Shown: one piece after another, positions 1,581 through 28,492 of the stretch | Layout: each line of letters begins with the position of its first letter | Position numbering within the stretch: position 1 is the first letter of the stretch | Assembly (NCBI GenBank): GCA_000503835.1 | Contig: CP006914.1 | Location: 303,341-367,340 of the forward strand | Source of the DNA: a candidate division WWE3 bacterium RAAC2_WWE3_1 | GTDB taxonomy: Bacteria; Patescibacteriota; WWE3; UBA101185; UBA10185 | DNA: 64,000 nucleotides | Direction of reading: 5' to 3' | Notes under the pieces: generated by a model | Told to the model about the DNA's origin: nothing | Databases searched by the model: none | The model's input: only the letters and a program-made list of their open reading frames with translations | Position numbers and translations under genes: made by a program

Positions 1581-1665
1581 CCCATCCACGGTAACTGTAA
1601 CTTGACTTTTCAACATCCTATATATACTATAGGGCAAGACCAACAGAGACACGGGAGGAGGAGAC

Positions 1666-1896
1666 ATGAGATACAAATTTCATTGGGAAACCTGGGCGTC
1701 ATTTTTAATGGCTGCAGCCCTATACCCGCTGATATACATCCTGATAGCAGGGCGCGAACACGTTTTCGCAGTCGGGTTGTTCGGCTCTTTTCTTCTTATA
1801 TCCGGAGTTATATGGGCAATCAAGAAATATCCGTATCCCGCGATGTTTTGCTTTACGGGAGTACTTTTAGCAGCAGCCCTTTTGGTTTTTCCCTAA
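1666..1896 (+). CDS. Small membrane protein (76 aa, 2 predicted TM helices)
   Basis: Strong SD GGGAGGAGGAGacATG. Two hydrophobic helices. Confidence 0.5.
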   Translation: MRYKFHWETWASFLMAAALYPLIYILIAGREHVFAVGLFGSFLLISGVIWAIKKYPYPAMFCFTGVLLAAALLVFP

Positions 1897-1978: not shown

Positions 1979-2710
1979 TTACAAATTCGGGTTAAAAGCC
2001 TCGGTGTAAATTGCGAAATCTTTTAAGCCCGCTTTATTTATGATATCAGAACAGTCGCGGATCATAGCGGTATTTCCGCACAAGTAAAAATCAGTACTAT
2101 CCGCAACAAAATCGGGCAGGCAAAATGTAACTCTGTTTGCAAAAAAGGGCGGTTTGAGTCCGTCGGTTACTCCCGACAGACATATAAAGTACTTAAATTT
2201 GGGCGACATTTCCAGGAACTTCTTGAATTTTTCTTCGAAAAAGACGTCTTCCATATCGCGTACGCCGAAAATGAGTACAACGGACTCTACAAAAGGATCT
2301 TCTAAAGCCGTGCCGAGCATAGGAATAAAAGGTGCAATGCCCGTAGAAGTAGCCACAAAGACCAGGTTTTTCCTGCCCTGTTTACGGTAAAAATACCGCC
2401 CGGAAGGGCCTATAAAGCCCGCAGACGCGCCTATTTTCAGGGAGTTGATAAAGTTAGCCCCAAGACCGGGTCGTCCCGTAATAGCCGCCAGTTCCACAAA
2501 AGGTTCGCCAACCGCGTCATTACAGATAGAGTAAGAACGGTAGGTGCCGTCAGCTACCTCAAGGTTAATAAATTGCCCGGGAATAAAAGAAAACTCCTTA
2601 ACGCCGTCAACCTTGAGCTTTAACCAGGTAACCAAAGGAGAAAGTACCTTTTTATCCACCGCAGTAGCGGTGTGCCTTGCGGGTAATACCATACCGGTAT
2701 ATGGTAACAT
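1979..2710 (-). CDS. FNR-like oxidoreductase (FAD-binding RxYS plus NAD(P)-binding module)
   Basis: Motifs RSYSICN (FAD), VFVATSTGIAPF (NAD(P) GxGxxP) and C-terminal FYLCGNTAMIRD, all typical of the ferredoxin-NADP reductase / PDR family. Paralogue of the C-terminal domain of the ACD fusion at 12650-13349. The true start may be the internal Met at 2692. Confidence 0.7.
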   Translation of the reverse strand: MLPYTGMVLPARHTATAVDKKVLSPLVTWLKLKVDGVKEFSFIPGQFINLEVADGTYRSYSICNDAVGEPFVELAAITGRPGLGANFINSLKIGASAGFIGPSGRYFYRKQGRKNLVFVATSTGIAPFIPMLGTALEDPFVESVVLIFGVRDMEDVFFEEKFKKFLEMSPKFKYFICLSGVTDGLKPPFFANRVTFCLPDFVADSTDFYLCGNTAMIRDCSDIINKAGLKDFAIYTEAFNPNL

Positions 2711-3981: not shown

Positions 3982-4032
3982 GCCGAAAAGGTAGGATAAG
4001 AAGCTTTAGGTGCTGGTTTGAGTACCGTCAAG

Positions 4033-4041
4033 TGCTATAAT
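4033..4041 (+). promoter_or_regulatory. Extended -10 promoter element (TGCTATAAT) upstream of tRNA-Gln
   Basis: Perfect TGnTATAAT 24 nt upstream of the tRNA 5' end. Conserved in the duplicated copy at 8321-8329. Confidence 0.5.
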
Positions 4042-4064
4042 TTCTTGTGTTTGAGCGCGACTAA

Positions 4065-4138
4065 TGGGGGATCGTCTAACGGTAGGACTGCGGGTTTTGG
4101 TCCCGCCTATTGGGGTTCGAATCCCTATCCCCCAGCCA
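4065..4138 (+). tRNA. tRNA-Gln (anticodon TTG), U1:A72, discriminator G, CCA encoded
   Basis: Acceptor TGGGGGA/TCCCCCA, anticodon stem GCGGG/CCCGC with loop TTTTGGT (anticodon TTG), T-arm TGGGG-TTCGAAT-CCCTA. Closely resembles bacterial tRNA-Gln. Confidence 0.8.
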
Positions 4139-4194
4139 GCGTTTTTGTTGTCATAGCGCCACTTACACAAGCAAATTATTTCGCAATTAAGATA

Positions 4195-5109
4195 ATGTAT
4201 AATTTTCGTATGGCTGATATAGGACAAACTAATGTCACGCTTGTTCAAACTGAAACTGCAGACAAACTTGTTCTAAACGGTATTTTGTCTATACCTAATA
4301 AGAATTCTAAGAACATAGTTCTTCATATACACGGCACTTCCGGAAGTTTTTATTGGAACAGTTTCTACAGCTATTTATCTAAAATGAGCGTTGACCTAGG
4401 ATTAACCTTTCTCGCAACAAACAATAGGGGATCCGGAGTTTATGAAGTAGAAAAAGGAACTGTTTATCATGGAGCTAGTTTGGAGAAATTTGAAGATTGC
4501 CTGTTAGACATAGACGCCTGGATTGAATTCTGCCTAAGCAAAGGGTACACAAATATTATTCTTGAGGGTCACAGTTTTGGTACTGAGAAAAGTGTTTATT
4601 ACCTCGTAAAAGGTAAGTACAAGGATAAGATTAAGGCAGTTATTCTTCTGGGATTTTCTGACACAGTTGGTACGCAACGAAGTTACGAAAAGAAAATTGG
4701 TAAAAATTATTTTGAGGAAGCTAATAAACTGGTAGGAGAAAACAGGGGTGAGTATTTACTCGCAGATTTAGGAGCATTGTGTGGGGAACTTCCCATAAGT
4801 GCACAAACTTATCTTAACTATTTTTCTGAAAACTCCGCGTGCTCTATGGCACTTCCATTAAGAAATGGGCGCGATTTAAAGTATTTTCAAAAGATAACAG
4901 TTCCAATTTTGGGGGTGATTGGTGATAAAGATGATGGGGAATACACAATAATCCCCATTAACGATGCTATCAAACTTCTTAATTCAGAAAATATACATGC
5001 GGAAGCGTATAAAATAAAGGACTGCAATCACGGTTTCGACGGTAAAGAGGTCGAATTAGCTAAAATTGTTGAAACATTCCTTACTCAAAAGATCTTAACA
5101 CTTGAATAA
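4195..5109 (+). CDS. Alpha/beta-hydrolase fold protein (GHSFG nucleophile elbow)
   Basis: The ORF-track start at 4018 runs through the tRNA. A realistic start is ATG 4195 or 4210 (MADIGQ...), with a GATAAT box immediately upstream suggesting a leaderless transcript. Motifs HGTSGSF and GHSFGT. Confidence 0.6.
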   Translation: MYNFRMADIGQTNVTLVQTETADKLVLNGILSIPNKNSKNIVLHIHGTSGSFYWNSFYSYLSKMSVDLGLTFLATNNRGSGVYEVEKGTVYHGASLEKFEDCLLDIDAWIEFCLSKGYTNIILEGHSFGTEKSVYYLVKGKYKDKIKAVILLGFSDTVGTQRSYEKKIGKNYFEEANKLVGENRGEYLLADLGALCGELPISAQTYLNYFSENSACSMALPLRNGRDLKYFQKITVPILGVIGDKDDGEYTIIPINDAIKLLNSENIHAEAYKIKDCNHGFDGKEVELAKIVETFLTQKILTLE

Positions 5110-9111: not shown

Positions 9112-9660
9112 ATGAAAACACCAACCATGGATCTTATAGAAGAGCACGGCGGAATTATGCTGATGCTAAGTGTTATGAAAAAAGTGACTGATAAACTTAA
9201 GGCCGGGGAAGAGGTGAAAAAAGAACACCTCGACAAGATTCTCGAGTTTCTCACAAATTTTGCCGACAAATGTCACCACGGAAAAGAGGAGGACATGCTT
9301 TTCCCGGAGTTATTTAAGAATCCATCAAATCAAGGGTTGGTCGCCGAGCTTATAGACGAGCACACGACCGCTCGTGGTTACATAAAGAGCATAGCAAAGG
9401 CTATGGAAAACTACTCACCCGGAAACTCTGAGGCCTCAACTATCGCCGAAAATATGGAAAAATATATTCAGCTTTTAACCGAGCACATTGGAAAAGAAAA
9501 TAGTGATTTATTTCCCACTGCAAACAACGAGCTTTCTGAAGAAACGCAGGAACAAATGGAGGAACAGTTCGAAAAGTTTGAACACGATGTTATTGGCGAG
9601 GGAAAGCATGAAGAGTACCACGGATGGCTTGAGGAACTGAAAAAAGTGTATTTGAACTAA
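9112..9660 (+). CDS. Hemerythrin-like (HHE cation-binding) domain protein
   Basis: Repeated H...HxxxE motifs (EEHGG; CHHGKEED; DEHTT; EHIGKEN). Confidence 0.55.
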   Translation: MKTPTMDLIEEHGGIMLMLSVMKKVTDKLKAGEEVKKEHLDKILEFLTNFADKCHHGKEEDMLFPELFKNPSNQGLVAELIDEHTTARGYIKSIAKAMENYSPGNSEASTIAENMEKYIQLLTEHIGKENSDLFPTANNELSEETQEQMEEQFEKFEHDVIGEGKHEEYHGWLEELKKVYLN

Positions 9661-9671
9661 TAGAGACTAAA

Positions 9672-10430
9672 TTACCTACAGGTCCAACCACCGTCGACCG
9701 GTAATATTATCCCCGTAACATATTTAGCCGCGTCTGAAGCAAGATAAACCGCTGCACCTGCAATATCATCCGGCTCTCCTGCGTATCCTAATGGTGTGTT
9801 TGCCTTAACCATGGCGTTGAAACCTTCATCTTCCAAAACGTCTTTGGTCATATTTGTCTTGATAAAGCCCGGTGCTATTGCGTTAACTCTTATACTTAGT
9901 GAAGCTAAATCCTGTGCAGCAGCACGGGTCATGTTGGACACCCCACCTTTGGCAGAACTGTACGCAATAGTTCCAGATAACCCGACAATTCCCAGTATCG
10001 ACGTCATATTTATGATGGAGCCTTTGGTATTTGTGGCTTTCATCGCGTTTCCGGCGGCTCTAACCCCGTAAAACACTCCCGACAAGTTCACGGCGATAAC
10101 TTTAGCCCAGTCCGCGTCAGTACAATCCAGTGCACTGCCGAGAGCACCGATACCGGCGTTATTTACCATAATGTCTAGTTTTCCGTACTTTTCTACAACC
10201 GTCCCTACTAATTGATTTACTTCTTCTGATTTGGAAACATCACATTTTGTAAATGAGGCTTTATCACCTAATCCTTCGATAACTTTTGCTCCCGCATCGT
10301 TTATGTCTGAGAAAACTACTGTCGCGCCTTCCTGAAGATAAAGTTTAGCTATTGCCAAACCAATTCCGCTGGACGCACCTGTTACTATTGCGATTTTATT
10401 TTGAAGTTTCATAGATACAAATGATAACAC
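9672..10430 (-). CDS. Short-chain dehydrogenase/reductase (FabG-like)
   Basis: TGASSGIGLAIA Rossmann motif, NNAG, catalytic YSSAKGG (YxxxK). Confidence 0.85.
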   Translation of the reverse strand: MLSFVSMKLQNKIAIVTGASSGIGLAIAKLYLQEGATVVFSDINDAGAKVIEGLGDKASFTKCDVSKSEEVNQLVGTVVEKYGKLDIMVNNAGIGALGSALDCTDADWAKVIAVNLSGVFYGVRAAGNAMKATNTKGSIINMTSILGIVGLSGTIAYSSAKGGVSNMTRAAAQDLASLSIRVNAIAPGFIKTNMTKDVLEDEGFNAMVKANTPLGYAGEPDDIAGAAVYLASDAAKYVTGIILPVDGGWTCR

Positions 10431-10481: not shown

Positions 10482-13349
10482 ATGCCCAAGAACCTCGTTG
10501 CCCTTTTTTCACCAAAATCAATCGTTGTCATTGGGGCTTCCACATCGCCCGAAAAGGTAGGCGCGGTAATTTTAAAAAACATTGTTGAATCGGAATATAA
10601 AGGCAAAGTTTTCGCGGTTAATCCCAACACAGACGCGATAGGCCAAATAAAATGCTATAAAACCGTTTTAGATCTCCCGGAAATTCCCGATTTAGCAATA
10701 ATTTCTATTCCCGCTGCTTTAGTTCTGCCCACAATACAACAAATCATTGAAAAGGGCATTAAGAACGTGGTGACGCTGACAGCCGGGTTTAAAGAAACCG
10801 GTCACGATGGAGCGGAGCTCGAAAAACAGCTGGAGGATTTATGCACGAAGAACGAAATTAATATGCTCGGACCTAACTGTCTGGGGTTTGTTAATAATCT
10901 AGTCTCTCTTAACGCTACGTTCGCAAAAGTTCCCGCGACCCCCGGTAAATTAAGATTTATTTCACAGTCGGGTGCCCTTGCCACAAGTCTTTTCGATTGG
11001 TTTTCTTTAGTTAACGTGGGGTTTTCCGAATTTATTACAATGGGAAACAAAACAGTAATAAATGAGAACGATGTTTTGGAATATTTTATAAGCAAAGACC
11101 AGGCTCCGATTTCAACTTTGGCCGACGACGTAACGGGAAAAATCGAACCGGTCGGAATGTATCTTGAATCTATTTCCGACGGCCGGCAATTTTTAAAATT
11201 AACAAAACAAATTGCCAAGAACGATCCTATTTTTATTATTAAACCCGGAAAAACTGCGGCGGCAAAAACTGCAATGCAGTCGCACACCGGAGCAATAGCA
11301 GGAGCCGACGATATTTTGGACGTCGCACTCAAACAGTCGGGAGTTTACAGATGTGCTTCTCTCGAAGAATTTTTCGACCTTTCTAAAGCATTTGCCTGGA
11401 ATGAAATTCCCAAAGGTCCTAGAGTTGCCATTATTTCTAACGCCGGAGGTCCGGGAGTAATAAGTGCGGATGCCGTAATAGAAGAAGGTTTGGAAATCGC
11501 TCAGTTCGACGACGAAACAAAAAAGAAATTATCAGAAGTATTACCGAGATCGGCAAGCTTTCTAGACCCGGTAGACGTTCTCGGAGACGCCCTCGCAGAC
11601 CGCTTTTCTGACGCTGCTGAAATTGTCCTTCAAACCGACAAATGTGACTCCCTGCTGGTTATTCTGACACCCCAAATGATGACCCAGATAGAAAAGACGG
11701 CCGAAGTAATTGGTGAGGTTTCAAAAAAGTACCATATCCCCGTCTTCTGTTCCTTCATAGGAGGAAGCGTGGTATCGGCAGGAGAAACAGCGCTTAACAA
11801 CCTCAAAGTGCCGTCCTACATGTTTCCTGAAAGAGCGATAGCGGTCATCGGAGCAATGTGGAAATTCAAGAGTCAGCAGGAAGAAATTTTGAGGGAAATT
11901 GTGGACAAAGGCGTCCTTAACAAACAAATACTCCCTGAGAAGTGCTCCAAAATTTTACAGAAGGCCGTAAGCGCGGGACAGAAAGCTTTAGACAATCTTG
12001 ATGCAGACAGCATAATTTCCCTTTCGGGAATACAAACTCCGGGAACAAAGATTGCGGTAAATCTCAAAGACGCGGCTAAATTTGCAAAAGATATCGGGTA
12101 CCCTGTTGTTTTAAAACTTTCATCGCCCGGGCTTTTACACAAAAAACATTTCGGCGGAGTTATTTTAGATATAAGAAACGAGGATCAACTTGAAAACGGT
12201 TGGAGCACTCTTGAAAGAAAATCCGAAAATCTCGACGCGGAGATAAAAGCGCACGTCAATTTTCAGATCCAAAAAGAAATTCCGAGCGGGGCAGAAGTTT
12301 TTGTGGGAATTAAAAGAGATCCCACATTCGGACCGGTATTATTGTTCGGCGCCGGAGGTTCGCTGGTAGAACTTATATCTGATAGAAACCTTCATCTTCT
12401 TCCTATGGACACGATAAGCATTCAGGAATTAGTTAAAGATTCCAAAATTTACTCTGTTCTTAAAGGTACAGAAAATGAGCCTCCTTACGCATTAGACAAG
12501 CTTTATAAACTGATATTCGACCTGCAAAAGCTATATGAAGCAGCACAGGAAATCCAGGAAATAGAAATAAATCCCGTGATAGTAACCACAAACGATGTCT
12601 GGGCGGTAGATACAAAAGTAATCTTAGAAGCAGGCAAAGCTAAACCCGCAGGCCCGAAGTTCAAAGTTGCTAAAACCTTGAAAACAGAGGTACTAGCTGG
12701 AAAGATTCACTATTTTGAATTCGAAGCGGACGAACCTCTGATATTAAAGCCCGGGCAGTATATAAGCGTAAAGGTGTCCTCAACGAGAATTAACTGTTAT
12801 TCTGTGGCCGGACAGACCGCTCCAAATAAATTTAATCTTCTTGTCGATTCATCCCCCGGAGGGCCCGGCTCAAAATTCTTCGAGGCTTTAAAAGAAGGGG
12901 ATGTGATTACATATCTCGGACCTTTCGGTACGTTCACATTAAAACCCGATGATGGAGCAGATTCAATATTATTTATGGCAACAGGTTCGGGTTTGGCTCC
13001 ACTAAAATTAATGTTTGAACATCTACTCAAAGTAGAAAAGACGAAAAAGAACATCGTGCTGTACCTGGGATTAAATAATTGCGAGGACGTGTTTATGGAA
13101 GAGTACTTTGAATCGCTATCCAAAGAATTTCCGAATTTTAAATATAATATCGCTGTGTGCAACAAGAGCACCAAATGGAAAGGCGCGACGGGATTTATTA
13201 CTCCTTTGGTGAAAAAAGACTTCCCCGATGCAGGCAAATGTTCCGCATATCTCTGCGGAAATAAGTTTATGATAAAAGATGTTGCAAAAGTTCTGACCGA
13301 TGCCGGGTGCCCGACTGACAGAATTTATTTCGAAAAATATGATGCCTAA
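10482..13349 (+). CDS. ADP-forming acetyl-CoA synthetase (alpha-beta fusion) with C-terminal FNR-like FAD/NAD(P) reductase domain
   Basis: N-terminal CoA-binding (SIVVIGAS), succinyl-CoA-ligase-like and ATP-grasp regions (GYPVVLKLSSPGLLHKKHFGGV). C-terminal ~250 aa carry RINCYSVAG (FAD RxYS), MATGSGLAPL (NAD(P)-binding) and YLCGNKFMIKD, an FNR-family module. Total length 955 aa. Confidence 0.75.
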   Translation: MPKNLVALFSPKSIVVIGASTSPEKVGAVILKNIVESEYKGKVFAVNPNTDAIGQIKCYKTVLDLPEIPDLAIISIPAALVLPTIQQIIEKGIKNVVTLTAGFKETGHDGAELEKQLEDLCTKNEINMLGPNCLGFVNNLVSLNATFAKVPATPGKLRFISQSGALATSLFDWFSLVNVGFSEFITMGNKTVINENDVLEYFISKDQAPISTLADDVTGKIEPVGMYLESISDGRQFLKLTKQIAKNDPIFIIKPGKTAAAKTAMQSHTGAIAGADDILDVALKQSGVYRCASLEEFFDLSKAFAWNEIPKGPRVAIISNAGGPGVISADAVIEEGLEIAQFDDETKKKLSEVLPRSASFLDPVDVLGDALADRFSDAAEIVLQTDKCDSLLVILTPQMMTQIEKTAEVIGEVSKKYHIPVFCSFIGGSVVSAGETALNNLKVPSYMFPERAIAVIGAMWKFKSQQEEILREIVDKGVLNKQILPEKCSKILQKAVSAGQKALDNLDADSIISLSGIQTPGTKIAVNLKDAAKFAKDIGYPVVLKLSSPGLLHKKHFGGVILDIRNEDQLENGWSTLERKSENLDAEIKAHVNFQIQKEIPSGAEVFVGIKRDPTFGPVLLFGAGGSLVELISDRNLHLLPMDTISIQELVKDSKIYSVLKGTENEPPYALDKLYKLIFDLQKLYEAAQEIQEIEINPVIVTTNDVWAVDTKVILEAGKAKPAGPKFKVAKTLKTEVLAGKIHYFEFEADEPLILKPGQYISVKVSSTRINCYSVAGQTAPNKFNLLVDSSPGGPGSKFFEALKEGDVITYLGPFGTFTLKPDDGADSILFMATGSGLAPLKLMFEHLLKVEKTKKNIVLYLGLNNCEDVFMEEYFESLSKEFPNFKYNIAVCNKSTKWKGATGFITPLVKKDFPDAGKCSAYLCGNKFMIKDVAKVLTDAGCPTDRIYFEKYDA

Positions 13350-15087
13350 AGTAGATAACAGACAGGAAATATTATCGGTAAAAATAGGCGCGGAGGCAGG
13401 GCAGGGCGTCAAATCGGCCGGTCTGATGCTCGCTAAACTCGCTATACGCTCGGGATACCATATCTATAGTCAAATTGAATACCCCTCACTTATAAAGGGA
13501 GGACACAATGTTATTCAGGTAAATATTTCCAAAAATGAAGTTACGGCACCAAGAAAAGTTAACGACATTCTCATAGCTCTTAATCAGGACACCATAAACA
13601 AGCACATTACGGAATTCTCGAAAGATTCAGGATTAATTTTTGATTCTGAAGTTAAGGTAGATACTTCGAAAGTTCCTTCAAACGTCGCTCTAATTGGGCT
13701 GCCCCTATCAAAAATCTCCAGGGAAACGGGGAACTCCGCTTTGTTAATTAACACCGTCGCTTTGGGAGCCGTCACCGCAGTTCTCGGCGGAAATATTGTT
13801 ATTTTGAACGAATTAATAGCGGAAGAATTCGGAAGTAAGGGCGAGGAAATAGTAAAAGTAAATGTGTCGGCGGCAGAGCAAGGGTTTAAACACATCACGG
13901 AAAATTACAAAAAGTATTTAAGGGCGTTTCTGAGTCCTTCTGATTCGGTCAGTAATTTTGTTCCTTACATGGCTGTCGACGGAAATGAAAGTGTCGCATT
14001 GGGAGCAATCTCAGCCGGGCTTCAGTTCGCGGCGATCTACCCAATGTCTCCTATTTCAAACATTTTGGCAGTACTTGCCGAAAACCAGGAAAAGTTCGGA
14101 TACATATATAAACAGCCCGAGGACGAAATTTCAGCAATAAACATGTCTATTGGGGCATCCTACGCCGGAGCAAGAGCTATGACAGCTACCTCAGGCGGTG
14201 GTTTCTCTCTAATGACCGAAGGTTACGGTCTGGCAGGAATGACCGAAACACCGCTGGTGATAGTAGAAGGCATGCGCCCGGGACCGGCCACCGGACTTCC
14301 GACCTGGAGCGACCAGGGTGACCTGCAGATGATCTTAAATGCCCACCAGGGCGATTTTCCAAGAATAATCCTCGCCGCAGGAGATGCGAAAGAGGCATTT
14401 GAACTTACCATGCAGGCCTTTAACCTGGCCGATAAATACCAGACACCCGTCGTCCTTATTATTGATAAAAACATCTGCGAAAACGCTCAAAGTTTCCCTT
14501 TGTACGATCTTGCCGGCTATAAGGTAGACCGCGGCAAATTCTCAACAAATAGAGTAGAGAATTACAAAAGATACGAACTTAACCCCGAAGGCATTTCGCA
14601 AAGAACTGTTCCGGGCGCCGGAAACTTTTTTGTCGCAAATTCCGACGAACACGACGAGGAAGGTTACTCGACGGAAGATGCAGAAATCAGAAGCAAAATG
14701 ATGGAAAAAAGAATGAACAAACTGAAAATCTGCAAAGAACAGGACATGCAAAAACCTCAAATGTTTGGTCCGGAAAATGCTGACGTAACCATTGTTTCGT
14801 GGGGAAGCAATAAAGGAACAATACTTCAGGCATTAAAAGAACTCGACAATGTTAACTACGTGCACATAAGCTGGCTCAGCCCATTCCCGTCAGAAACTTT
14901 ATCGGAAATGTTATCGAAATCTAAATATATTTTAAATGTTGAATGTAATTACACCGGGCAGATGGCAAAACTAATACGCGAAAATACTCAAATAAAAATT
15001 GACGAAAACTTTTTAAAGTACGACGGAAGACAAATTTACCCGGAAGAAATTATCGACGCCGTTAACAAGATAAGGAGTAAAAAATGA
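13339..15087 (+). CDS. 2-oxoacid:ferredoxin oxidoreductase alpha subunit (gamma-alpha fused type)
   Basis: ATGATG start overlaps the stop of the upstream gene. N-terminal gamma-like region (GQGVKSAGLMLAKLA), then a PorA-like core. The track start at 13300 lacks a start context. Confidence 0.8.
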   Translation: MMPKVDNRQEILSVKIGAEAGQGVKSAGLMLAKLAIRSGYHIYSQIEYPSLIKGGHNVIQVNISKNEVTAPRKVNDILIALNQDTINKHITEFSKDSGLIFDSEVKVDTSKVPSNVALIGLPLSKISRETGNSALLINTVALGAVTAVLGGNIVILNELIAEEFGSKGEEIVKVNVSAAEQGFKHITENYKKYLRAFLSPSDSVSNFVPYMAVDGNESVALGAISAGLQFAAIYPMSPISNILAVLAENQEKFGYIYKQPEDEISAINMSIGASYAGARAMTATSGGGFSLMTEGYGLAGMTETPLVIVEGMRPGPATGLPTWSDQGDLQMILNAHQGDFPRIILAAGDAKEAFELTMQAFNLADKYQTPVVLIIDKNICENAQSFPLYDLAGYKVDRGKFSTNRVENYKRYELNPEGISQRTVPGAGNFFVANSDEHDEEGYSTEDAEIRSKMMEKRMNKLKICKEQDMQKPQMFGPENADVTIVSWGSNKGTILQALKELDNVNYVHISWLSPFPSETLSEMLSKSKYILNVECNYTGQMAKLIRENTQIKIDENFLKYDGRQIYPEEIIDAVNKIRSKK

Positions 15088-15941
15088 CAAAAATGAGTGA
15101 TTTACAAACACTGCACTTTCCGAACTGGTGTCCCGGTTGCGGCGATCTGAATATTTGGGGTGCTTTCAAAAACGCGGCAGTTAAGGAAGGGTGGGACAGT
15201 TCCAATACCTCCATTGTTGCCGGAATCGGTTGTCACGGCCACATCGTTAACTTCGTTAAACTAAACTCATTTGAAGGCCTGCATGGAAGGGCTCTGCCCG
15301 TAGCGAGCGGAGTTAAAATGGTCAACAACCGTCTTAACACTTTTGTTTTTACAGGAGACGGGGATTGTTTCGGAGAGGGGGGAAATCATTTTATTCATAC
15401 CTGCAGAAGAAATCACGATCTTACGATTCTGATACACGACAACGCGTTATATTCTTTGACGACGGGGCAAACATCGCCTTTAACAGCTCACGGGTTTAAA
15501 ACAAAATCGACGCCGCAGGGAAATCCGGACGAGCCGTTCAACCCGTTAACATTGGCAATAATTTCAGGAGCTACGTTTGTGGCTCGCGCATATTCGGGGG
15601 ATATGCCGAAATTAGCAGAATTAATTATTGAGGCGAATAAACACAAGGGACTTGCGGTGATTGATATTCTTCAACCCTGCGTAACGTTCAATAAAGTTTG
15701 CACACACGGGTTCTATCAGGAAAACACGTACTACCTTGAAGAAAATTACGACCCTTCGGACAAAAATAAAGCTTTAGAGAGAGCCTCGGAGTTCGGTGAC
15801 AAAAAAATACCGCTCGGAATATTTTATAAAACGAACAGACCTTCTTATGAAGATCAAATCTTGCAAATCAAAGAAAAACCTCTGACAGAAATACCCGTGG
15901 AAAGATCCTCAGCGATAGAACTTTTCAAAAAATATACCTAA
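15084..15941 (+). CDS. 2-oxoacid:ferredoxin oxidoreductase beta subunit (TPP-binding)
   Basis: CPGCGD Cys motif, TPP-binding GDGD...N region. 4-nt overlap with the alpha subunit. Confidence 0.8.
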   Translation: MTKMSDLQTLHFPNWCPGCGDLNIWGAFKNAAVKEGWDSSNTSIVAGIGCHGHIVNFVKLNSFEGLHGRALPVASGVKMVNNRLNTFVFTGDGDCFGEGGNHFIHTCRRNHDLTILIHDNALYSLTTGQTSPLTAHGFKTKSTPQGNPDEPFNPLTLAIISGATFVARAYSGDMPKLAELIIEANKHKGLAVIDILQPCVTFNKVCTHGFYQENTYYLEENYDPSDKNKALERASEFGDKKIPLGIFYKTNRPSYEDQILQIKEKPLTEIPVERSSAIELFKKYT

Positions 15942-15979: not shown

Positions 15980-16225
15980 ATGGAAGATAAAGAAATTCAA
16001 ATAGGAAAATATAAGGTAAAGGTAATAAGAAAGGACTGCATTGGCGCAGCCTCCTGTGTTGCGGTTTCTTCGTCTGTATTTAAGTTGGACGGAGAAAATA
16101 AAGCTGTATTTGTGGATGGGGCGGCTGACGATGCGGACAACATACTGATGGCTGCACAATCCTGCCCTACCAAAGCTATTGTCGTTACAGATACCGAAAG
16201 TGGTAAGCAGGTTTGGCCTGAATAA
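15980..16225 (+). CDS. Small single-cluster ferredoxin (Pyrococcus-type; Ala at the second ligand position suggests [3Fe-4S])
   Basis: 81 aa, CIGAASC ... SCP cysteine pattern. Confidence 0.6.
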   Translation: MEDKEIQIGKYKVKVIRKDCIGAASCVAVSSSVFKLDGENKAVFVDGAADDADNILMAAQSCPTKAIVVTDTESGKQVWPE

Positions 16226-17139
16226 TGTCTAATACAACTAAGGGTATTTACATTTCATTGACTACAGCAGTTATTTCAGGTGTCTCTATTTTTGTAAATA
16301 AATTTGCCGTCGACACCATTAAACCCGCGCTGTATTTTACTTCCGTTAAAAATGTTGCTGTGGCGCTTTTAATTATCGCCATAATATTGGCTACCGGAGA
16401 ATGGAAGAAAATCGTCACACTTACCAAAAAAGAGCTCAAATATTTGCTTTTGATCGGGTTAATCGGAGGTTCACTTCCTTTCTATCTTTATTTCACGGGT
16501 CTGTCACAAACACCTGCGGTTAATGCGGCAATCATTCACAAAACGCTGGTATTCTGGGTTATGCTTATGGCCATTCCTTTTTTAAAAGAAAAGGTTACCA
16601 AGTGGCAAATTTTGGGCGTTTTAATGTTGTTCGCCGGAAACGTGTTTGTCGGCGGCTTCAAAGGCTTTAAATTTTCCCAGGGAGAATTAATGCTTTTGAT
16701 TGCGACGGTTTTGTGGGCAGTTGAAAACATCATTGCTAAAAAAGTTTTAACCACGGTTTCACCCAATATCGTAGCCGCGTTCAGGATGGGGCTGGGCTCC
16801 GTTGTACTTATGTCTGCGACAGTATTAACGATTCCGCAGATATTACAAAAAAGCTTATCGTTAAATAGCGGGCAGTTTTTCTTTATCGGACTTACCGTAC
16901 TATTTTTACTTGCATACACAACAACATGGTATAGAGCACTTAAAAATGCTCCGGCTGTCGTTGTAACCTCTGTCCTGGTTTCTTCTACGTTAATTACGAA
17001 CGTGCTGTCGGCAGTGTTTGTTACACACAGCTGGAATGCGGTGCTGACGGTTCAGGCTGTGTTGATAGTTGCAGGACTAGTGCTATTTTCGAAAAGTACA
17101 ACAACCCGACCCAGTACCGTCACCCTCACTACACTATAG
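16225..17139 (+). CDS. DMT-superfamily (EamA-like) transporter, 10 TM
   Basis: Two-repeat hydrophobic architecture typical of EamA. Confidence 0.5.
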   Translation: MSNTTKGIYISLTTAVISGVSIFVNKFAVDTIKPALYFTSVKNVAVALLIIAIILATGEWKKIVTLTKKELKYLLLIGLIGGSLPFYLYFTGLSQTPAVNAAIIHKTLVFWVMLMAIPFLKEKVTKWQILGVLMLFAGNVFVGGFKGFKFSQGELMLLIATVLWAVENIIAKKVLTTVSPNIVAAFRMGLGSVVLMSATVLTIPQILQKSLSLNSGQFFFIGLTVLFLLAYTTTWYRALKNAPAVVVTSVLVSSTLITNVLSAVFVTHSWNAVLTVQAVLIVAGLVLFSKSTTTRPSTVTLTTL

Positions 17140-17575: not shown

Positions 17576-17620
17576 AGGCCGGGATTTTTCAAAAAAAACC
17601 CGGCTTTTCTTTTCTTCCCT
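17576..17620. terminator. Bidirectional terminator hairpin between convergent genes
   Basis: GGCCGGG ... CCCGGCC stem with a T-rich tail on the plus strand and an A-rich tail on the other side. Confidence 0.4.
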
Positions 17621-18206
17621 AACTAACAGTTTTCAAAACTTCATTCGTCCAATAAGTTATCTTTTTTATTTCCTCTTCGTTTAGAATTTTCACAATCTGC
17701 TTCCAGTGAACCGCAACTGTGTCTCCAACTTCTATATCAGTAACAAACCCTTCAACAAAAGGAAACGTCTCTTTAATAAGAGTGCGTTTATACACACCTT
17801 TTACTTTTTTCAAAGAATTTAAACTTACCACCACCGTCTTTTTGTTTACTTTTTCAACTTTCCCCCAGCGGATCATGCAGTTGTTAATTGACTCCAGATT
17901 ATAAGGAACAGAGCCGCTTGCCCTTCCTACGCCGACGTGCAAAACCTGAAATAAGTGGGTGGGGATAAACTTTTTCGGCTTTTCGGTCTTAAGCTCGTCG
18001 ACGAACCATTCAGGAACACCCTGCTTTGTAAAAAAATTCAAGAGAACAGGATAATCTTTATTCTTGGCCTTTAACAGCGTATCGTTGCCCAGCCAGTAGC
18101 TCTCAACGACCCTATATGAAAATTTTTGCAATCCGGTGATTTTCGACAGCGTTCTCAAATACGGGTGCAAAACAATAAAATGCTTAAATTCTTCTTCGAC
18201 TCCCAC
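17619..18206 (-). CDS. Hypothetical protein (195 aa) adjacent to the hydrogenase genes
   Basis: ORF with no recognisable motif. Confidence 0.4.
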   Translation of the reverse strand: MGVEEEFKHFIVLHPYLRTLSKITGLQKFSYRVVESYWLGNDTLLKAKNKDYPVLLNFFTKQGVPEWFVDELKTEKPKKFIPTHLFQVLHVGVGRASGSVPYNLESINNCMIRWGKVEKVNKKTVVVSLNSLKKVKGVYKRTLIKETFPFVEGFVTDIEVGDTVAVHWKQIVKILNEEEIKKITYWTNEVLKTVS

Positions 18207-18363: not shown

Positions 18364-18765
18364 TTGCCTATGAAAGTTTATGTATTCGGAAATAAAGATT
18401 TGGGGTTGGACAACAAAGCTTTTGCCGCGCAAAAAAAGTTGGGTACTATATTCCCTCAAATTGAATTCGTAGAGGTTAAGCTTAATGCGGACTTACCTTT
18501 CGAGCACGACGAACAGGTTTATATTATGGACACGGTCGAAGGAATTGAAGAGCCGGTTTTAATAGAGGATTTGGATAAACTTATTAACACAAATTCAGTT
18601 TCTGTACACGACTTTGACCTGGGGTTTCAACTGAAATATCTGAAGAAGCTGGGAAAGCTCGGTAATGTTACAATAATAGGACTGCCGATGGGAAAAAAGA
18701 CAGATTACTTGCGTATCCAGTCAATTTTCAAAAAGTTGGTAGCGCAGGACATGCAGGGATCGTAA
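18364..18765 (+). CDS. [NiFe]-hydrogenase maturation endopeptidase (HycI/HybD family)
   Basis: VYVFGNKDLGLD (compare VxGxGN..GDDG), IMDTV, H-D...L and IIGLPMG segments laid out as in HycI. The 3' end overlaps the convergent large-subunit gene by ~60 nt. Confidence 0.55.
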   Translation: MPMKVYVFGNKDLGLDNKAFAAQKKLGTIFPQIEFVEVKLNADLPFEHDEQVYIMDTVEGIEEPVLIEDLDKLINTNSVSVHDFDLGFQLKYLKKLGKLGNVTIIGLPMGKKTDYLRIQSIFKKLVAQDMQGS

Positions 18766-20006
18766 GCTCTGATTATTTTTTCAGCTTCAACCCTAAGAAC
18801 ATTTTCCGGCTTATCGAGGTTTGCACCAAAGTATTTTCTCAGGTCCTTTTCTATATTTATCTGGTTCTGTGAGGTAGGGACAATAACATCGTAATCCTCG
18901 ATCATACCTTTATCGTTTACCCTGGCCATGTGGTACAAAGTTCCTCTCGGAGCCTCTACGACTCCCACCCCCACACCTGCTTTTTTCGGCGTCTTGACGG
19001 GTTTTTCGTCGACTATCTTTATAGTTTTTAAAACGTCAAGGGCGTCGTCCACACATTGAAGAATTTCTATGGCCTGAGCCAAATTGTTGTGGTGAACGTT
19101 TTTGGACGGGAAAATGCTCAAGTATTGTTCGACATCAGCTTTTGTTCTCGGGTTAAGTAAGTCTTTATTAAAGTTCAATCTCGCCAATGCACCCACTAAA
19201 TAATTATCATGCTGGTCAGAAAAAACGTAACCCTCGGATTGGGAGTATGGTACGACAACGGATTTAAGAAAGTCGTGAAAATTACTTTCGGTAATTGCCT
19301 TACCGTCGGAATTTGTAATTTCACCTTCGATAAAATCAAAACTCTTGCCGTTTCTTAAACACAAAAAGTCGGCGTCACTAAACAACTCTTGTTTGTAATC
19401 AAAGAAAGTTTTAATTCCTCTCAGAACCTGGGGTCTTATTTTTTCCAATCTTTCTATTAGAGCCGGGAACTTTGCCGGATCCGGAGTTTTCAAAAATCCC
19501 CCGACGGTAGGGTAGGGAGCGTGAATAGCAGCCCCAATTATTACGTCGCTAATGTCGGTACCAAGCTTTTTGATATCAAACGAGTCGTGTAACAAAATAT
19601 GTCCGGAATCGTCATGGTCGTCGGGTATGTCCAGGATAGAATCAATTCCTAAAACATCGGGTAAAACAAAGAAATAAAGATGCAGAGCATGGTCGCGTAT
19701 CATAAGACCGTCGTAGGCGACCCTCCGTAACAAGCGTGTTTGTTCTGTCAAAACAATGTCCTGTGATTTTTCTATCGCCTCGAGAGACGCAAAAAGATGG
19801 GCGACCGAGCACGTTCCGCATATCCTCGATAAAAACGACGGTGACGCGACGTACGGCTTTCCGAGCACAGCCTCCGTATAAAACCTGCGGTAATCTTTGA
19901 TAATAAATTTAAGATTAGTTACTTTGTCATTTTCAACAGTAACTTCAACGCCGGCCGTCCCTTCTATTTTGGTAATATTTTCAATCGTTATGTTTCCGCT
20001 ATGCAT
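18705..20006 (-). CDS. [NiFe]-hydrogenase large subunit (group 3/4-like, 433 aa)
   Basis: N-terminal RICGTCSVAH (RxCGxCxxxH) and C-terminal DPCMSCATN (DPCxxCxx[H/R]) Ni-Fe ligand motifs. Confidence 0.8.
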   Translation of the reverse strand: MHSGNITIENITKIEGTAGVEVTVENDKVTNLKFIIKDYRRFYTEAVLGKPYVASPSFLSRICGTCSVAHLFASLEAIEKSQDIVLTEQTRLLRRVAYDGLMIRDHALHLYFFVLPDVLGIDSILDIPDDHDDSGHILLHDSFDIKKLGTDISDVIIGAAIHAPYPTVGGFLKTPDPAKFPALIERLEKIRPQVLRGIKTFFDYKQELFSDADFLCLRNGKSFDFIEGEITNSDGKAITESNFHDFLKSVVVPYSQSEGYVFSDQHDNYLVGALARLNFNKDLLNPRTKADVEQYLSIFPSKNVHHNNLAQAIEILQCVDDALDVLKTIKIVDEKPVKTPKKAGVGVGVVEAPRGTLYHMARVNDKGMIEDYDVIVPTSQNQINIEKDLRKYFGANLDKPENVLRVEAEKIIRAYDPCMSCATNFLKIDWIRK

Positions 20007-20523
20007 TTTCGATTATTTTAAATAATTTTAAGTACTTCCAGAGAGCGGTCTTGAAAGCTTCGGCGTTCATGGGACAGCCGTCAACTTTATCGTCAACCTT
20101 GATTACGTCCTCAAGTTTTTTAACTTTGGCTGCGTAATCAAAATGTTCCATGTACCATTTGGTTTTAAAACTCATATTTTCAGGGACAAACATGTTTCTG
20201 CTTGCCGAAGGAAGTCCGTTGCAGGCACACGCACCTATTGCCACCACATACTTTGAGTTGTTGCGGATTTTTGTAACTTCTGTGGCCTGTTTTTCTGAAG
20301 AAATTGCACCTTCGATAAAAGCTACGTCCAGATTTTCGATGGAATTGTTTGTTTTTAAGGCTTTTAAGTGCCTGAACTCAACAAGAGTTTTCCATTCGGC
20401 GAAGTGATCGTTCAAAAGCTCGGTAAACAAAATCGTGCTGTCTTCACTACAGGTAAAAGAAAACCAGCCTACAACAAGTTTCTTTATTTTGTCGGGTTGG
20501 GTAGAAACATAGGCAGTATCCAT
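19999..20523 (-). CDS. [NiFe]-hydrogenase small subunit (NuoB-like, proximal cluster only)
   Basis: 174 aa. Cys in TCSED, GACACNG and GCP motifs. 8-nt overlap with the large-subunit gene. Confidence 0.6.
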   Translation of the reverse strand: MDTAYVSTQPDKIKKLVVGWFSFTCSEDSTILFTELLNDHFAEWKTLVEFRHLKALKTNNSIENLDVAFIEGAISSEKQATEVTKIRNNSKYVVAIGACACNGLPSASRNMFVPENMSFKTKWYMEHFDYAAKVKKLEDVIKVDDKVDGCPMNAEAFKTALWKYLKLFKIIENA

Positions 20524-21073: not shown

Positions 21074-23524
21074 ATGAAAAACTACCGATTCCTCACAGAA
21101 GAAAAAGGACTATCAAACGCAGAGGTAACTCAAAGACAAAAACAATACGGCCTTAACATACTTCCCGAAAAAGCTCCCCCGGGTAAGTTTTACCTGTTTT
21201 TAGCACAGCTTAAAAGCCCGTTGGTATACGTTTTGCTCGCGTCCTCACTGGTTACATTTGCGCTTGGTGAAATCGCGAACGCTTTTATAATTCTCCTCGC
21301 GGTCATTATTAATACGGTATTGGGATTTATACAGGAGTACAAAACATCGAACGCCCTGGCCGCTTTAAAAAAATTTATCTCCGACGAAACAACCGTAATC
21401 CGTGACGGAAACCGGGTACTAATCGATTCTTCTCAAATCGTACCTGGCGACATTATAGTTTTGAGCCAGGGAGATAAAATTCCGGCAGACGGAGAAATAC
21501 TATCCTCTAACCGGCTGCATGTTAATGAGTCTATATTAACGGGAGAGAGCGCCGCAGTTGAAAAAAGTAATGACGACGGGCTTTTTATGGGAACCACCGT
21601 AGTTTCAGGACAAGCCGCTATCCAGATAGAAGCCACAGGCACTGCAACGAAGATGGGAAAAATCGCCGAGAAAATACAGGAAGAAAAAGAGGTTACTCCA
21701 CTTCAAAAACAATTAAAATCATTCAGCACCCAGCTTTTGTACGTAATAGGACTTCTCGTCGTTGTCGTATTTGTTGTCGGACTTATACATAAATTCAGCC
21801 TCGTAGAAATATTTACAACTTCAGTGGCCTTAGCCGTTTCAAGTATTCCCGAAGGCCTTTTAGTTTCATTAACAGTTGTACTTGCTGTAGGAATGCAAAA
21901 GATTTTAAAACGAAAAGGCCTGGTAAGAAAATTGGCGGCGGCCGAAACTTTGGGCGGTGTCACGGTTATTTGTGTGGATAAAACAGGGACTTTAACCGAG
22001 GGACATATGGAAGTCGTTGATTTCATAGGAAACGAGAAAGAATTAGCAGTTCAGTCTTTACTGGCAAACGATTTAGACGACCCGATTGTGATATCGGCAT
22101 ACGAATGGGGAAAGAAAATAATGGGAGATCCCGCACCGGGTCTTCCGAGAATTGACAGCATACCATTCTCATCCGAGGACCGCTTTTCTCTTTGTCTGAA
22201 TAAATGGAACGCTGAAAAAAACATAATATTTGTGAACGGCGCCCCTGAAATACTCCTTCGATGGACAACCTTATCCGATAAAGAAAAAGAAGAAATAGTC
22301 TTGTCCATAGATAATTTTACAAAACAAGGAAAACGGGTAATAGGATTTGCCAGAAAAGAAGTACCTATAGAAAAGGTTGCTTTAGACGCTTCGGACGCAA
22401 TGAGTGACTTATCCTGGGCAGGCTTGCTGGTGTTTTCCGACCCCGTGAGAATGGGAGTTAAGGAAGCCCTGGAACAAGCCAGAATTGCCGGAATAAAAAT
22501 AATGGTTATAACGGGAGATTACGCAAATACATCTGAGTTTGTTCTATCGGAACTGGAAGTAGCGGTATCAAAAGACGAGATAATGACCGGGGACCGACTT
22601 GCTGTACTTTCAGCTGAAGAATTGTCACACCGGGTAAAAAATATAAGACTATTCGCAAGAACAACACCGGATCAAAAACTTTTAATAGTGGGGGCTCTCA
22701 AAAACAACGGAGAAATCGTGGCTATGATAGGGGACGGTGTTAACGACGCACCGGCTTTGCACAAATCAGATATCGGAGTTGTTGTCGGAGAGGCTTCAGA
22801 CGTTGCAAAAGAATCTGCTGATCTCGTCTTACTCGATTCTAATTTTTCAACTATTATTGCCGCGGTAGAAGAGGGCAGAGTTATGTTTGAAAACATAAGG
22901 AAAATTATCCTTTATCTGTTATGCGATGCCTTCGGTGAAATAATCGTAGTCCTCGGTGGAATAATGCTGGGCGTCCCTTTGCCTCTTACAGCCGTTCAGA
23001 TACTTTGGATCAATCTGGTTTCCGACGGATTCCCCAATCTTGCACTGACAGTAGACCCGAAAAGAAAAGACATTATGTATGAAGTTCCGCGTCCGGCTAA
23101 GGAACTCCTCGTCAATACTAAAATGGTTATATTGATTTCATTTGTGAGCCTACTCGTGGGTCTTATAGCACTTGGTTCCTTCGTATACATCTATAATTCG
23201 ACGGGTGACGTAGTTTTAGCAAGATCATTTACATTTATAACGATCGGTCTGAACTCCCTGATTTATGTCTTTGCCGTAAGAGAACCCAAAAAACCCTTTT
23301 GGAACAATCACATGTTCAACAATAAGTACTTGGTTGCTGCTGTGATTGGAGGATTAGCACTTCAATTCCTTCCCTTTTCTACGGGCGCATCAAGACAGTT
23401 TTTCGGGTTGAGTGAACTCGGAATAAAACACTGGGTGCTCGCCCTGAATTTCTCACTTATAATGTTCTTCGTTATCGAAGTATTTAAGAAGGTGACCAAC
23501 CGCGGGGGTTTCAGCCGGTTATAA
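21074..23524 (+). CDS. P-type ATPase, P2-type cation (Ca2+/Mg2+-like) transporter
   Basis: PEGLLVSL (TM4 PEGL), ICVDKTGTLT phosphorylation motif, GDGVNDAPAL hinge. Confidence 0.85.
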   Translation: MKNYRFLTEEKGLSNAEVTQRQKQYGLNILPEKAPPGKFYLFLAQLKSPLVYVLLASSLVTFALGEIANAFIILLAVIINTVLGFIQEYKTSNALAALKKFISDETTVIRDGNRVLIDSSQIVPGDIIVLSQGDKIPADGEILSSNRLHVNESILTGESAAVEKSNDDGLFMGTTVVSGQAAIQIEATGTATKMGKIAEKIQEEKEVTPLQKQLKSFSTQLLYVIGLLVVVVFVVGLIHKFSLVEIFTTSVALAVSSIPEGLLVSLTVVLAVGMQKILKRKGLVRKLAAAETLGGVTVICVDKTGTLTEGHMEVVDFIGNEKELAVQSLLANDLDDPIVISAYEWGKKIMGDPAPGLPRIDSIPFSSEDRFSLCLNKWNAEKNIIFVNGAPEILLRWTTLSDKEKEEIVLSIDNFTKQGKRVIGFARKEVPIEKVALDASDAMSDLSWAGLLVFSDPVRMGVKEALEQARIAGIKIMVITGDYANTSEFVLSELEVAVSKDEIMTGDRLAVLSAEELSHRVKNIRLFARTTPDQKLLIVGALKNNGEIVAMIGDGVNDAPALHKSDIGVVVGEASDVAKESADLVLLDSNFSTIIAAVEEGRVMFENIRKIILYLLCDAFGEIIVVLGGIMLGVPLPLTAVQILWINLVSDGFPNLALTVDPKRKDIMYEVPRPAKELLVNTKMVILISFVSLLVGLIALGSFVYIYNSTGDVVLARSFTFITIGLNSLIYVFAVREPKKPFWNNHMFNNKYLVAAVIGGLALQFLPFSTGASRQFFGLSELGIKHWVLALNFSLIMFFVIEVFKKVTNRGGFSRL

Positions 23525-23530
23525 AACACA

Positions 23531-24388: not shown

Positions 24389-24432
24389 AAAGACAACTTA
24401 AGCCGCATCACAATGCTTTTCCATCAACTGTT

Positions 24433-26661: not shown

Positions 26662-26688
26662 TTAGTCTCCTTATGATAGAAATAAACC

Positions 26689-26701
26689 TAATATTGTATA
26701 T
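26689..26701. promoter_or_regulatory. Inverted repeat TGTATATAATACA overlapping a TATAAT box in the divergent intergenic region of the metal genes
   Basis: 5-bp arms TGTAT/ATACA around a central ATA. Lies between divergently transcribed metal-resistance genes and is a candidate operator/-10. Confidence 0.3.
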
Positions 26702-26810
26702 AATACATTGATAGCAACAAATATGATACACTTAACGGTCGTGATCCGTGTATTATTTACTGCCTAACCCATCCGAAGATGTCACAGGCACTTTAAGTAT
26801 AAGGTAGATA

Positions 26811-28253: not shown

Positions 28254-28275
28254 TGCCGGAGATGGAAAAATAATT

Positions 28276-28491
28276 ATGAACTATAAAATACAGCTGGAAA
28301 ATTTGCACTGCAATTCCTGCAAGAAAATTGCAGAAAAAAGACTCGGAAAAATAGAAGGAGTTACGTCCGTTGAAGTAACTATGGAAGATCAGACTGCGCT
28401 TGTACATACCGAACAACCTTTAAGTCTGTTGCAGACAGAGGACGCTCTGAAGGATACCGACTATAAAGTTACGGCTTTTACCGAGATCTAA
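28276..28491 (+). CDS. copZ: Copper chaperone CopZ-like (single HMA domain)
   Basis: Start at ATG 28276 ([17 protein letters not shown]), giving 71 aa. The ORF-track start at 28129 includes untranslatable upstream sequence. Confidence 0.7.
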
Positions 28492-28492
28492 T

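Follow-up and report, generated by a model that had tools for sequence, protein, structure and literature searches.

We have analysed a stretch of 64,000 nucleotides (hereafter the window, whose coordinates are used throughout) of the genome of the candidate division WWE3 bacterium RAAC2_WWE3_1 (contig CP006914.1, positions 303,341 to 367,340), in which a single gene on the forward strand combines a putative ADP-forming acetyl-CoA synthetase (ACD) with a domain of the ferredoxin-NAD(P) reductase (FNR) superfamily, immediately upstream of genes for a 2-oxoacid:ferredoxin oxidoreductase (OFOR) and a small ferredoxin. The fusion gene (10482..13349) is an intact, ATG-started open reading frame (ORF) of 955 codons plus stop, and its product shares 100% identity with 'hypothetical protein A2364_02755' of the candidate division WWE3 bacterium RIFOXYB1_FULL_43_12. 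Its ACD alpha part (10515..11870) is made up of the Pfam domains CoA_binding_2 (residues 12-138), Succ_CoA_lig (154-304) and Ligase_CoA_2 (315-463), all above their gathering cut-offs, and the ACD beta part (11964..12626) of ATP-grasp_5 (residues 495-715, E-value 6.6e-57). A linker of low sequence conservation (12627..12662, residues 716-727) leads to the FNR-like flavin/NAD(P)H domain (12663..13346, residues 728-955), which contains FAD_binding_6 at residues 737-818 (12690-12935; 32.6 bits against a cut-off of 21.1) and NAD_binding_1 at residues 831-935 (12972-13286; 59 bits against 22). A preliminary description of this DNA had read the protein as a complete ACD alpha-beta fusion followed by about 250 residues of FNR type. 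The uninterrupted ORF and the Pfam matches agree with this, and the C-terminal region does score with FNR-family models, although its size here is nearer 228-240 residues.

The fusion is not an artefact. A homology search with the fused protein, drawing on NCBI, JGI, ENA and Logan, listed the best 120 relatives, which reach down to 54% identity, and statements about conservation below refer to these. All 120 are 922-990 residues long and 118 list the same seven Pfam domains, the other two (P0041 and P0069) lacking the FAD_binding_6 entry only; the FNR half is conserved as strongly as the ACD half. At the level of loci, a junction-spanning alignment, used to scan GTDB genomes at one per species and supplemented by three contigs from an exact-protein look-up, gave 64 loci whose FNR is at least 40% identical to the window's FNR domain; two of the look-up loci (L002 and L003) appear to duplicate scan loci (L046 and L035, respectively). 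FNR is fused to ACD in 57 of the 64 loci, and in 56 of these 57 the reading frame continues through the junction without a stop. Two separate genes joined by an assembly error or by a frameshift (the latter a refuting case named in the preliminary description) would have had to arise dozens of times over, in independent assemblies that are mostly GTDB species genomes; nothing speaks for it besides the one fused locus (L061) that fails a crude in-frame test, and given the shared size and architecture of the relatives we regard the chance of it as practically nil.

With regard to spread, which the preliminary description had proposed should be searched for, the fusion occurs chiefly in WWE3 and Microgenomates. 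Reliably named carriers belong to WWE3 and to the Levy-, Davies-, Ames-, Woese- and Roizmanbacteria, with single representatives in the Uhr- and Moranbacteria. Because clustering of the fused family at 50% identity leaves about three full-length representatives, the family can be described as a compact clade. Its members carry the public names 'hypothetical protein', 'acetate--CoA ligase family protein' or 'acetyltransferase'. Some contigs with the island described below come from metagenome-assembled genomes labelled 'uncultured Gammaproteobacteria', 'uncultured Saccharibacteria' or 'Woesearchaeota', which look unreliable, and we did not use these labels. Nine loci with this island, which is typical of the candidate phyla radiation (L026, L032, L038, L044, L053, L054, L056, L060 and L062), bear the label 'uncultured Gammaproteobacteria' or 'Woesearchaeota archaeon', probably through taxonomic mislabelling or mis-binning of the contigs.

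The N-terminal 715 residues most likely constitute a catalytically competent ADP-forming acyl-CoA synthetase, as judged from their sequence. All five subdomains of the ACD superfamily are present, and the alignment to the ADP-forming CoA ligase 8wzu extends over the full length at 1e-124. Two histidines are found in 120 of 120 relatives and correspond to the phosphorylated histidines of ACDs. His268 (codon 11283-11285) lies in the SHTGA loop (MQSHTGAIAG) and aligns with the corresponding histidine of the ADP-forming CoA ligases 8wzu, 9y43 and 2csu, while His553 (codon 12138-12140), in the HK..GGV motif, aligns with the histidine of the ACD beta subunits 1wr2 and 4xyl_B ('vvhksdvggv' in the latter), the two residues after HK being variable and K-H in the window protein. 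Residues 256-273 around His268 are of low confidence in the AlphaFold2 (AF2) model, as expected of a mobile loop.

From its sequence and its modelled structure, the FNR half is predicted to be a reductase that binds FAD and NAD(P)H; within the FNR superfamily it most resembles the modules of BenC, MmoC and NqrF. In an AF2 model of residues 672-955 the predicted local distance difference test score (pLDDT) is >90 over most of the FNR fold, and Foldseek matches this model with a probability of 1.00 to GcoB, NqrF, cytochrome b5 reductase, Fre, BenC and the gamma subunit of the sulfhydrogenase SHI, many TM-scores being about 0.7; the highest target-length-normalised TM-score (TMt) among the listed matches is that of E. 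coli Fre (1qfj; 0.88, rmsd 2.3 Å). Sequence matches in the PDB are to the reductase modules of NqrF, BenC and MmoC. Against NCBIfam the domain scores 114 bits with MmoC (cut-off 500), 109 with BenC (cut-off 430), 41 with PetH (cut-off 600) and 20.7 with Fpr (cut-off 390), and at the NCBIfam cut-offs it reaches no named FNR equivalog (plant/cyanobacterial FNR, Fpr, BenC, MmoC, NqrF or Fre). An NAD(P)H-flavin reductase model matches at 2e-21 (76 bits). Models of hydrogenase gamma subunits give 32-56 bits, as against the 109-114 bits of BenC and MmoC, so that derivation of the fused FNR from a hydrogenase gamma subunit is not supported. Taken together, the sequence comparisons place the protein in both the ACD and the FNR superfamily, with no named equivalog in either.

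The flavin and nicotinamide motifs of this half are conserved. Invariant or nearly so are Y773-S774, G794/G796/S797, G813-P814-x-G816, T834-G835-x-G837, Y923-x-C-G926-x3-M930, E951 and an aromatic residue at 953, which the window protein realises as GGPGS (793-797), TGSGLAP (834-840), YLCGNKFM (923-930) and E951-K-Y953. The strings quoted in the preliminary description are all located (RINCYSVAG at 769-777, GSGLAP at 835-840, YLCGNKFM at 923-930), but its reading of the first as an RxYS motif does not hold: the motif is R-x3-Y-S, with the arginine four residues before the tyrosine (R769-I-N-C-Y773-S774, at 12786-12803). Across the family an arginine stands at -4 of the tyrosine in 94 of 120 proteins and at -2 in 25, never at both, with a lysine at -4 in one. 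To judge from this pattern, the shift looks like a compensated motif variant, in which a cofactor-binding residue has been relocated, rather than the loss of a motif. A preference for NADH or NADPH is not readable from the protein because the loop (residues 865-869) that follows strand two of the NAD(P)-binding domain varies, with N, R or T at residue 865 across the family. The linker that joins the two halves is constrained in length, the spacing from K712 to A730 being 17-19 residues in 111 of the 120 relatives, and its pLDDT falls below 50 only at residues 719-724.

As the preliminary description had noted, the fused gene leads into an OFOR operon with a ferredoxin. It is directly followed, on the same strand, by OFOR alpha of the gamma-alpha fused type (13339..15087; Pfam POR, POR_N and PFOR_II; TIGR03710 at 623 bits against 482.75), the thiamine pyrophosphate-binding OFOR beta (15084..15941; TPP_enzyme_C and PFO_beta_C; TIGR02177 at 320 bits against 261.9) and an 81-residue ferredoxin (15980..16225; Fer4_13 and Fer4_15). 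The overlap reported between the fused gene and the start of OFOR alpha exists, although its length of 50 nt applies only to the longest ORF, which starts at ATG 13300. Homology to OFOR alpha begins about 12 residues after the ATG at 13339/13342 and the gene call in a relative (L001) gives an 11-nt overlap; OFOR alpha thus probably starts at ATG 13339 or 13342 and overlaps by 8-11 nt, which is typical of translationally coupled genes. This order is widely kept: of the 53 loci whose downstream sequence extends for 2 kb or more, 46 have OFOR alpha directly 3' of the fused gene and 51 have it within 6 kb, and the ferredoxin is present in 44 of the 52 loci with at least 4 kb. At one locus (L003:9937-11819, on the same contig as L035) five small genes stand between ACD-FNR and OFOR alpha, including DUF433/DUF5615 and one PIN-domain gene, which look like toxin-antitoxin modules.

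The operon ferredoxin has three cysteines in the pattern C-x2-A-x2-C...C-P, which recurs in 46 of 47 homologues from related loci, only that of L067 having a four-cysteine form. Its relatives in the PDB include D. gigas FdII, P. furiosus Fd and 4id8. The three-cysteine pattern is typical of [3Fe-4S] ferredoxins, and it is unusual in a presumed OFOR acceptor.

Further along the island lie genes for a [NiFe] hydrogenase, both on the minus strand. The large subunit (18705..20006; Pfam NiFeSe_Hases) is group-3b-like: its best PDB matches are 5yxy and P. furiosus SHI alpha (about 1e-58), it keeps both Ni-binding cysteine pairs, CGTC (SRICGTCS) and CMSC (DPCMSC), and the sulfhyd_HydA model matches it at 223 bits, which is below that model's equivalog cut-off. 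The small subunit (19999..20523; Pfam Oxidored_q6) is truncated to 174 residues; it matches only residues ~50-151 of the 261-residue SHI delta, and its four cysteines would suffice for a proximal cluster only. Neither genes for hydrogenase beta/gamma subunits nor an ORF with the polyferredoxin-type CxxCxxCxxxC motif were found in the 64-kb window, so that, at least locally, the predicted hydrogenase is a two-subunit enzyme without the usual iron-sulphur (beta) and FAD/NADPH (gamma) subunits. The large subunit is syntenic with the island in 26 of the 46 loci with enough flanking sequence.

Between the ferredoxin and the hydrogenase the island contains an EamA-family transporter (16225..17139, plus strand), syntenic in many relatives, a 111-residue ORF, a DUF6390 protein (17619..18206, minus strand), which is also a syntenic member, and a 133-residue ORF (18364..18765, plus strand) whose counterpart at L002 has a weak match to HycI, a hydrogenase maturation protease. 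On its upstream side the fused gene is divergent from a gene for a short-chain dehydrogenase/reductase (SDR; 9672..10430, minus strand), whose position is kept in close WWE3 relatives; together with a plus-strand hemerythrin gene it occupies 9112-10430, and this pair keeps its position in L004, L006 and L007. The SDR exceeds the NCBIfam 'glucose 1-dehydrogenase' subfamily cut-off (239 against 215 bits) and with the meso-2,3-butanediol dehydrogenase model it scores 249 bits, close to that model's 270. In L032, L043, L051, L057 and L060 the operon is followed by a more distant SDR (34-38% identical). The SDR of the window could possibly serve as a sink for NAD(P)H.

Loci in which the FNR is not fused help to identify its partner. 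In L051 and L060 the position of the ACD in the operon is taken by an AMP-forming acetate-CoA ligase, followed by a separate FNR of 231-235 residues (48-53% identical to the window's FNR domain), OFOR alpha-beta and ferredoxin; the L051 ligase reaches the equivalog NF003313 (812.7 against 729 bits). These two genomes are Levybacteria-like, and the ligases lie at L051:2471-4935 and L060:4281-6693; in L060 both the ligase and OFOR alpha seem to be broken into two ORFs each, perhaps because of frameshifts or because they are pseudogenes. In L055 a separate FNR of 249 residues precedes OFOR and there is no ligase. Because the FNR stays beside OFOR when the ACD is replaced or absent, its constant partner is OFOR/ferredoxin rather than the ACD. 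More distant stand-alone FNRs (L064, L065 and L067) adjoin the same type of ferredoxin and lack an OFOR in their vicinity. The unfused FNRs of L051, L055 and L060 nest inside the fused clade in a neighbour-joining (NJ) tree, which is a crude and weak method, and this suggests that the unfused forms arose by secondary fission or replacement.

A second FNR-like gene in the window, encoding 243 residues (1979..2710), had been described as the same module in stand-alone form. It does have that size and the same two Pfam domains, but it lies on the minus strand in an unrelated context outside the island. At 28% identity and in a separate NJ clade it shares the fold alone, and we rejected it as the same module or a recent copy. 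In the ~730 nt downstream of it (about 1250-1978) there is no convincing ORF, only short or overlapping ones, and no Rfam match at the gathering threshold; the only cysteine-rich ORF there (1613-1795, minus strand) is without a CxxCxxCxxxC motif.

We hypothesise that the FNR half acts as a ferredoxin:NAD(P)+ oxidoreductase tethered to an ATP-forming ACD beside OFOR, a reading of the sequences that we consider the likeliest, though about evenly balanced between right and wrong. In such a scheme OFOR would convert pyruvate or another 2-oxoacid and CoA to acyl-CoA and CO2, passing the electrons to the three-cysteine ferredoxin; the ACD half would convert acyl-CoA, ADP and Pi to the acid and ATP; and the FNR half would carry electrons from ferredoxin via FAD to NAD(P)+. 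Were the FNR half to move ferredoxin electrons to NAD(P)+ in this way, the two-subunit OFOR would become a de facto 2-oxoacid:NAD(P)+ oxidoreductase. Ferredoxin would then be the redox partner, flux would run in the catabolic direction to either NADH or NADPH, and tethering would be of benefit by fixing the stoichiometry or by holding the protein in a complex with OFOR, the two activities being physically coupled. The minimal hydrogenase, overlooked in the preliminary description, is possibly a second outlet for the ferredoxin electrons. The acyl substrate of the ACD half is most likely acetyl-CoA, with acetate as the product.

Several observations weigh against this proposal. The closest characterised relatives of the FNR half (BenC, MmoC, NqrF and GcoB) run from NADH via FAD to an iron-sulphur centre, which is the opposite way. 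There is no ferredoxin within 6 kb in 8 of the 52 loci, and the three-cysteine pattern of the operon ferredoxin indicates a [3Fe-4S] cluster, a type that is often of relatively high potential. The ACD half stays below the acetate-CoA ligase alpha equivalog TIGR02717 (489.6 against 567.15 bits) and below NF045494 (421.9 against 1200 bits), and its closest solved relatives are ADP-forming 4-hydroxybutyrate- and 3-hydroxypropionate-CoA ligases, which act in the direction of making the CoA ester. Because the equivalog cut-off is missed, an acetyl substrate is best argued from the acetate-specific ligase that replaces the ACD in L051 and L060. Finally, the full-length AF2 model has a predicted TM-score (pTM) of 0.67 and comes without inter-domain error estimates, so that docking of the FNR onto the ACD is not established. 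A still closer association, in which ACD-FNR docks to OFOR, the acyl-CoA is handed over and electrons pass directly or via ferredoxin to FAD and on to NAD(P)+, with ferredoxin and FNR also standing in for the missing beta/gamma diaphorase of the hydrogenase, seems to us doubtful. If true, it would be an undescribed way to build a machine from minimal parts that turns pyruvate into acetate, ATP and NAD(P)H/H2, and a physical complex of OFOR, ACD and FNR (plus hydrogenase), or direct electron transfer, would raise the interest of the system substantially.

Since the nearest characterised relatives of the FNR half all run from NAD(P)H via FAD to an iron-sulphur centre, it might instead oxidise NAD(P)H and reduce ferredoxin for the two-subunit hydrogenase, replacing its beta/gamma diaphorase and letting glycolytic reductant leave as H2. 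The group-3b-like large subunit, the four-cysteine small subunit, the lack of a polyferredoxin-type ORF in the window and the synteny of the hydrogenase in 26 of 46 loci would all fit such a reverse flow. However, the 20 loci without hydrogenase all retain the FNR, OFOR being within 6 kb in 51 of 53; the FNR is nearer to MmoC and BenC than to hydrogenase gamma subunits (114 against 32-56 bits); and thermodynamics disfavour the formation of H2 from NAD(P)H via ferredoxin unless the level of H2 is held very low. We therefore consider reverse flow unlikely, while allowing it a real chance of being correct. The same direction of the FNR relatives could be accommodated by an anabolic module, in which the ligase activates acetate or another acid and OFOR works as a 2-oxoacid synthase by reductive carboxylation, with electrons from NAD(P)H through the FNR and ferredoxin or from H2 through the hydrogenase. 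The AMP-forming acetate-CoA ligase at the ACD's place in the operon is of a type that usually activates acetate, and the solved structures most similar to the ACD half belong to ligases that form CoA esters with ADP-dependent chemistry. Yet reductive carboxylation needs about -500 mV, for which NAD(P)H (-320 mV) and a ferredoxin that is probably of the [3Fe-4S] type would be poor donors, and both RAAC2 WWE3 and the Microgenomates bacterium Ch65 have been reconstructed as fermenters with very limited biosynthesis (PMC3812714, PMC7143001), which makes an anabolic role improbable in our view.

Other readings dispense with ferredoxin altogether. The FNR half could be a Fre-like free-flavin reductase or general diaphorase, or a protective reductase related to oxygen or iron, that became fused merely as a neighbour; 1qfj leads the listed Foldseek matches by TMt (0.88), there is a match at 2e-21 to the NAD(P)H-flavin reductase model, the module has no iron-sulphur domain of its own and a hemerythrin gene lies just upstream. 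The FAD-holding modules of BenC, MmoC and NqrF nevertheless score higher, at 109-114 bits against 76, the FNR persistently adjoins OFOR, and pairs of FNR and ferredoxin genes exist in the sister group, which leaves a Fre-like role distinctly improbable. A redox-sensing appendage that tunes the ACD to the NAD(P)H/NAD(P)+ ratio would have a precedent of layout in Pat/PatZ, where an ACD-like body is followed by a C-terminal domain of ~200 residues (9it0, 5e-83), and it would be consistent with the short linker of constrained length. This reading is contradicted by the unfused variants, in which replacement or absence of the ACD leaves the FNR beside OFOR; the catalytic histidine is kept in the ACD here, unlike in PatZ, and the full catalytic set of flavin and nicotinamide motifs is conserved. 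A sensor is accordingly, in our judgement, very unlikely indeed.

Set against known systems, the fused protein recombines familiar parts. The ACDs (EC 6.2.1.13), represented by Korarchaeum ACD1 (4xyl) and P. horikoshii PH0766/PH1789 (2csu/1wr2), and the Nitrosopumilus 4-hydroxybutyrate-CoA ligase (8wzu), have the same five subdomains, alpha-beta order and both histidines; solved relatives of ACD type match the ACD half at E-values of 1e-124 to 1e-81, but lack the extra C-terminal FAD/NAD(P)H domain. Pat/PatZ (9it0, 9isq) shares the layout of a ~700-residue ACD-like body and a ~200-residue C-terminal catalytic domain. However, PatZ appends a GNAT domain and has a deletion at the phosphohistidine loop, its body not being a ligase, whereas in the fused protein the histidine is invariant, the appendage is FNR-like and Pfam gives no GNAT match. 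BenC (1krh), MmoC (1tvc), NqrF (7qu3, 2r6h), GcoB (5ogx) and Fre (1qfj) have the same beta-barrel and Rossmann fold and share with the fused FNR the motifs Y-S, GGxGS, GPxGxF, TGxGxxP and CGxxxM and the E-K-aromatic C-terminus. Unlike those reductases, the fused FNR is without a fused [2Fe-2S] ferredoxin domain, carries the arginine at -4 and is joined to a CoA ligase.

The nearest functional parallels lie elsewhere. Pyruvate:NADP+ oxidoreductase (PNO) is a pyruvate:ferredoxin oxidoreductase (PFOR) fused to an NADPH-flavoprotein module. The 2-oxoglutarate:NADP+ oxidoreductase of Azoarcus evansii is reportedly an NAD(P)+-linked 2-oxoacid oxidoreductase with an extra flavoprotein subunit. PNO itself is named from Euglena and Cryptosporidium (PMC6856725). 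The logic proposed here is shared with both, in that electrons of a thiamine pyrophosphate/iron-sulphur 2-oxoacid oxidoreductase would reach NAD(P)+ through a co-encoded FAD/NAD(P)H module; here, however, the flavoprotein is fused to the ACD, which is the enzyme that follows in the pathway, and not to OFOR, it comes from another FNR subfamily, and the electrons probably pass through a small ferredoxin encoded separately. With regard to the hydrogenase, the island's large subunit is most similar to the alpha subunit of P. furiosus SHI (group 3b, alpha-delta-beta-gamma, 9nez), and SHI gamma, an FNR-fold FAD/NADPH subunit, is among the structural matches of the fused FNR. Unlike SHI, the island encodes alpha and a truncated delta only, and the fused FNR is not specifically related to SHI gamma.

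The physiology predicted here agrees with current assumptions about these organisms: reconstruction of a Microgenomates genome (Ch65) gave separate pyruvate oxidoreductase (POR), acetyl-CoA synthetase (ACS) and ferredoxin-NADP reductase (PMC7143001), and that of WWE3 gave PFOR and ADP-forming ACS as separate enzymes (PMC3812714). What is new is that the ATP-forming step and a presumed NAD(P)-linked electron port are on one polypeptide within a fixed gene cluster. The preliminary description was aware of no characterised ACD-FNR fusion, and our literature searches likewise found no paper mentioning one. WWE3 and Microgenomates are uncultured and have very small genomes, and their fermentative redox balancing is known only from gene lists; the cluster supplies four to six proteins that can be cloned and from which it could be reconstituted in vitro. 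The superfamily of NDP-forming acyl-CoA synthetases also gains a new domain architecture beside the Pat-type fusions to GNAT. Because the public names ignore the FNR domain, automated metabolic reconstructions will miss the reductase half.

Elsewhere in the window, 21074-31231 holds three P-type ATPases: one is a cation-type enzyme, the other two have the E1-E2 core, and one of these two bears a pair of HMA domains. Within this cluster a 480-residue fusion protein (26811-28253) combines HMA, DsbD_2 and cupredoxin-like domains. A window-wide Rfam scan gave three tRNAs only. One of them (54 bits; 4065-4135, plus strand) lies inside the 5' end of an ORF for an alpha/beta hydrolase with a TTG start (4018-5109), and because the tRNA occupies that end the true start of the hydrolase gene must lie further downstream.

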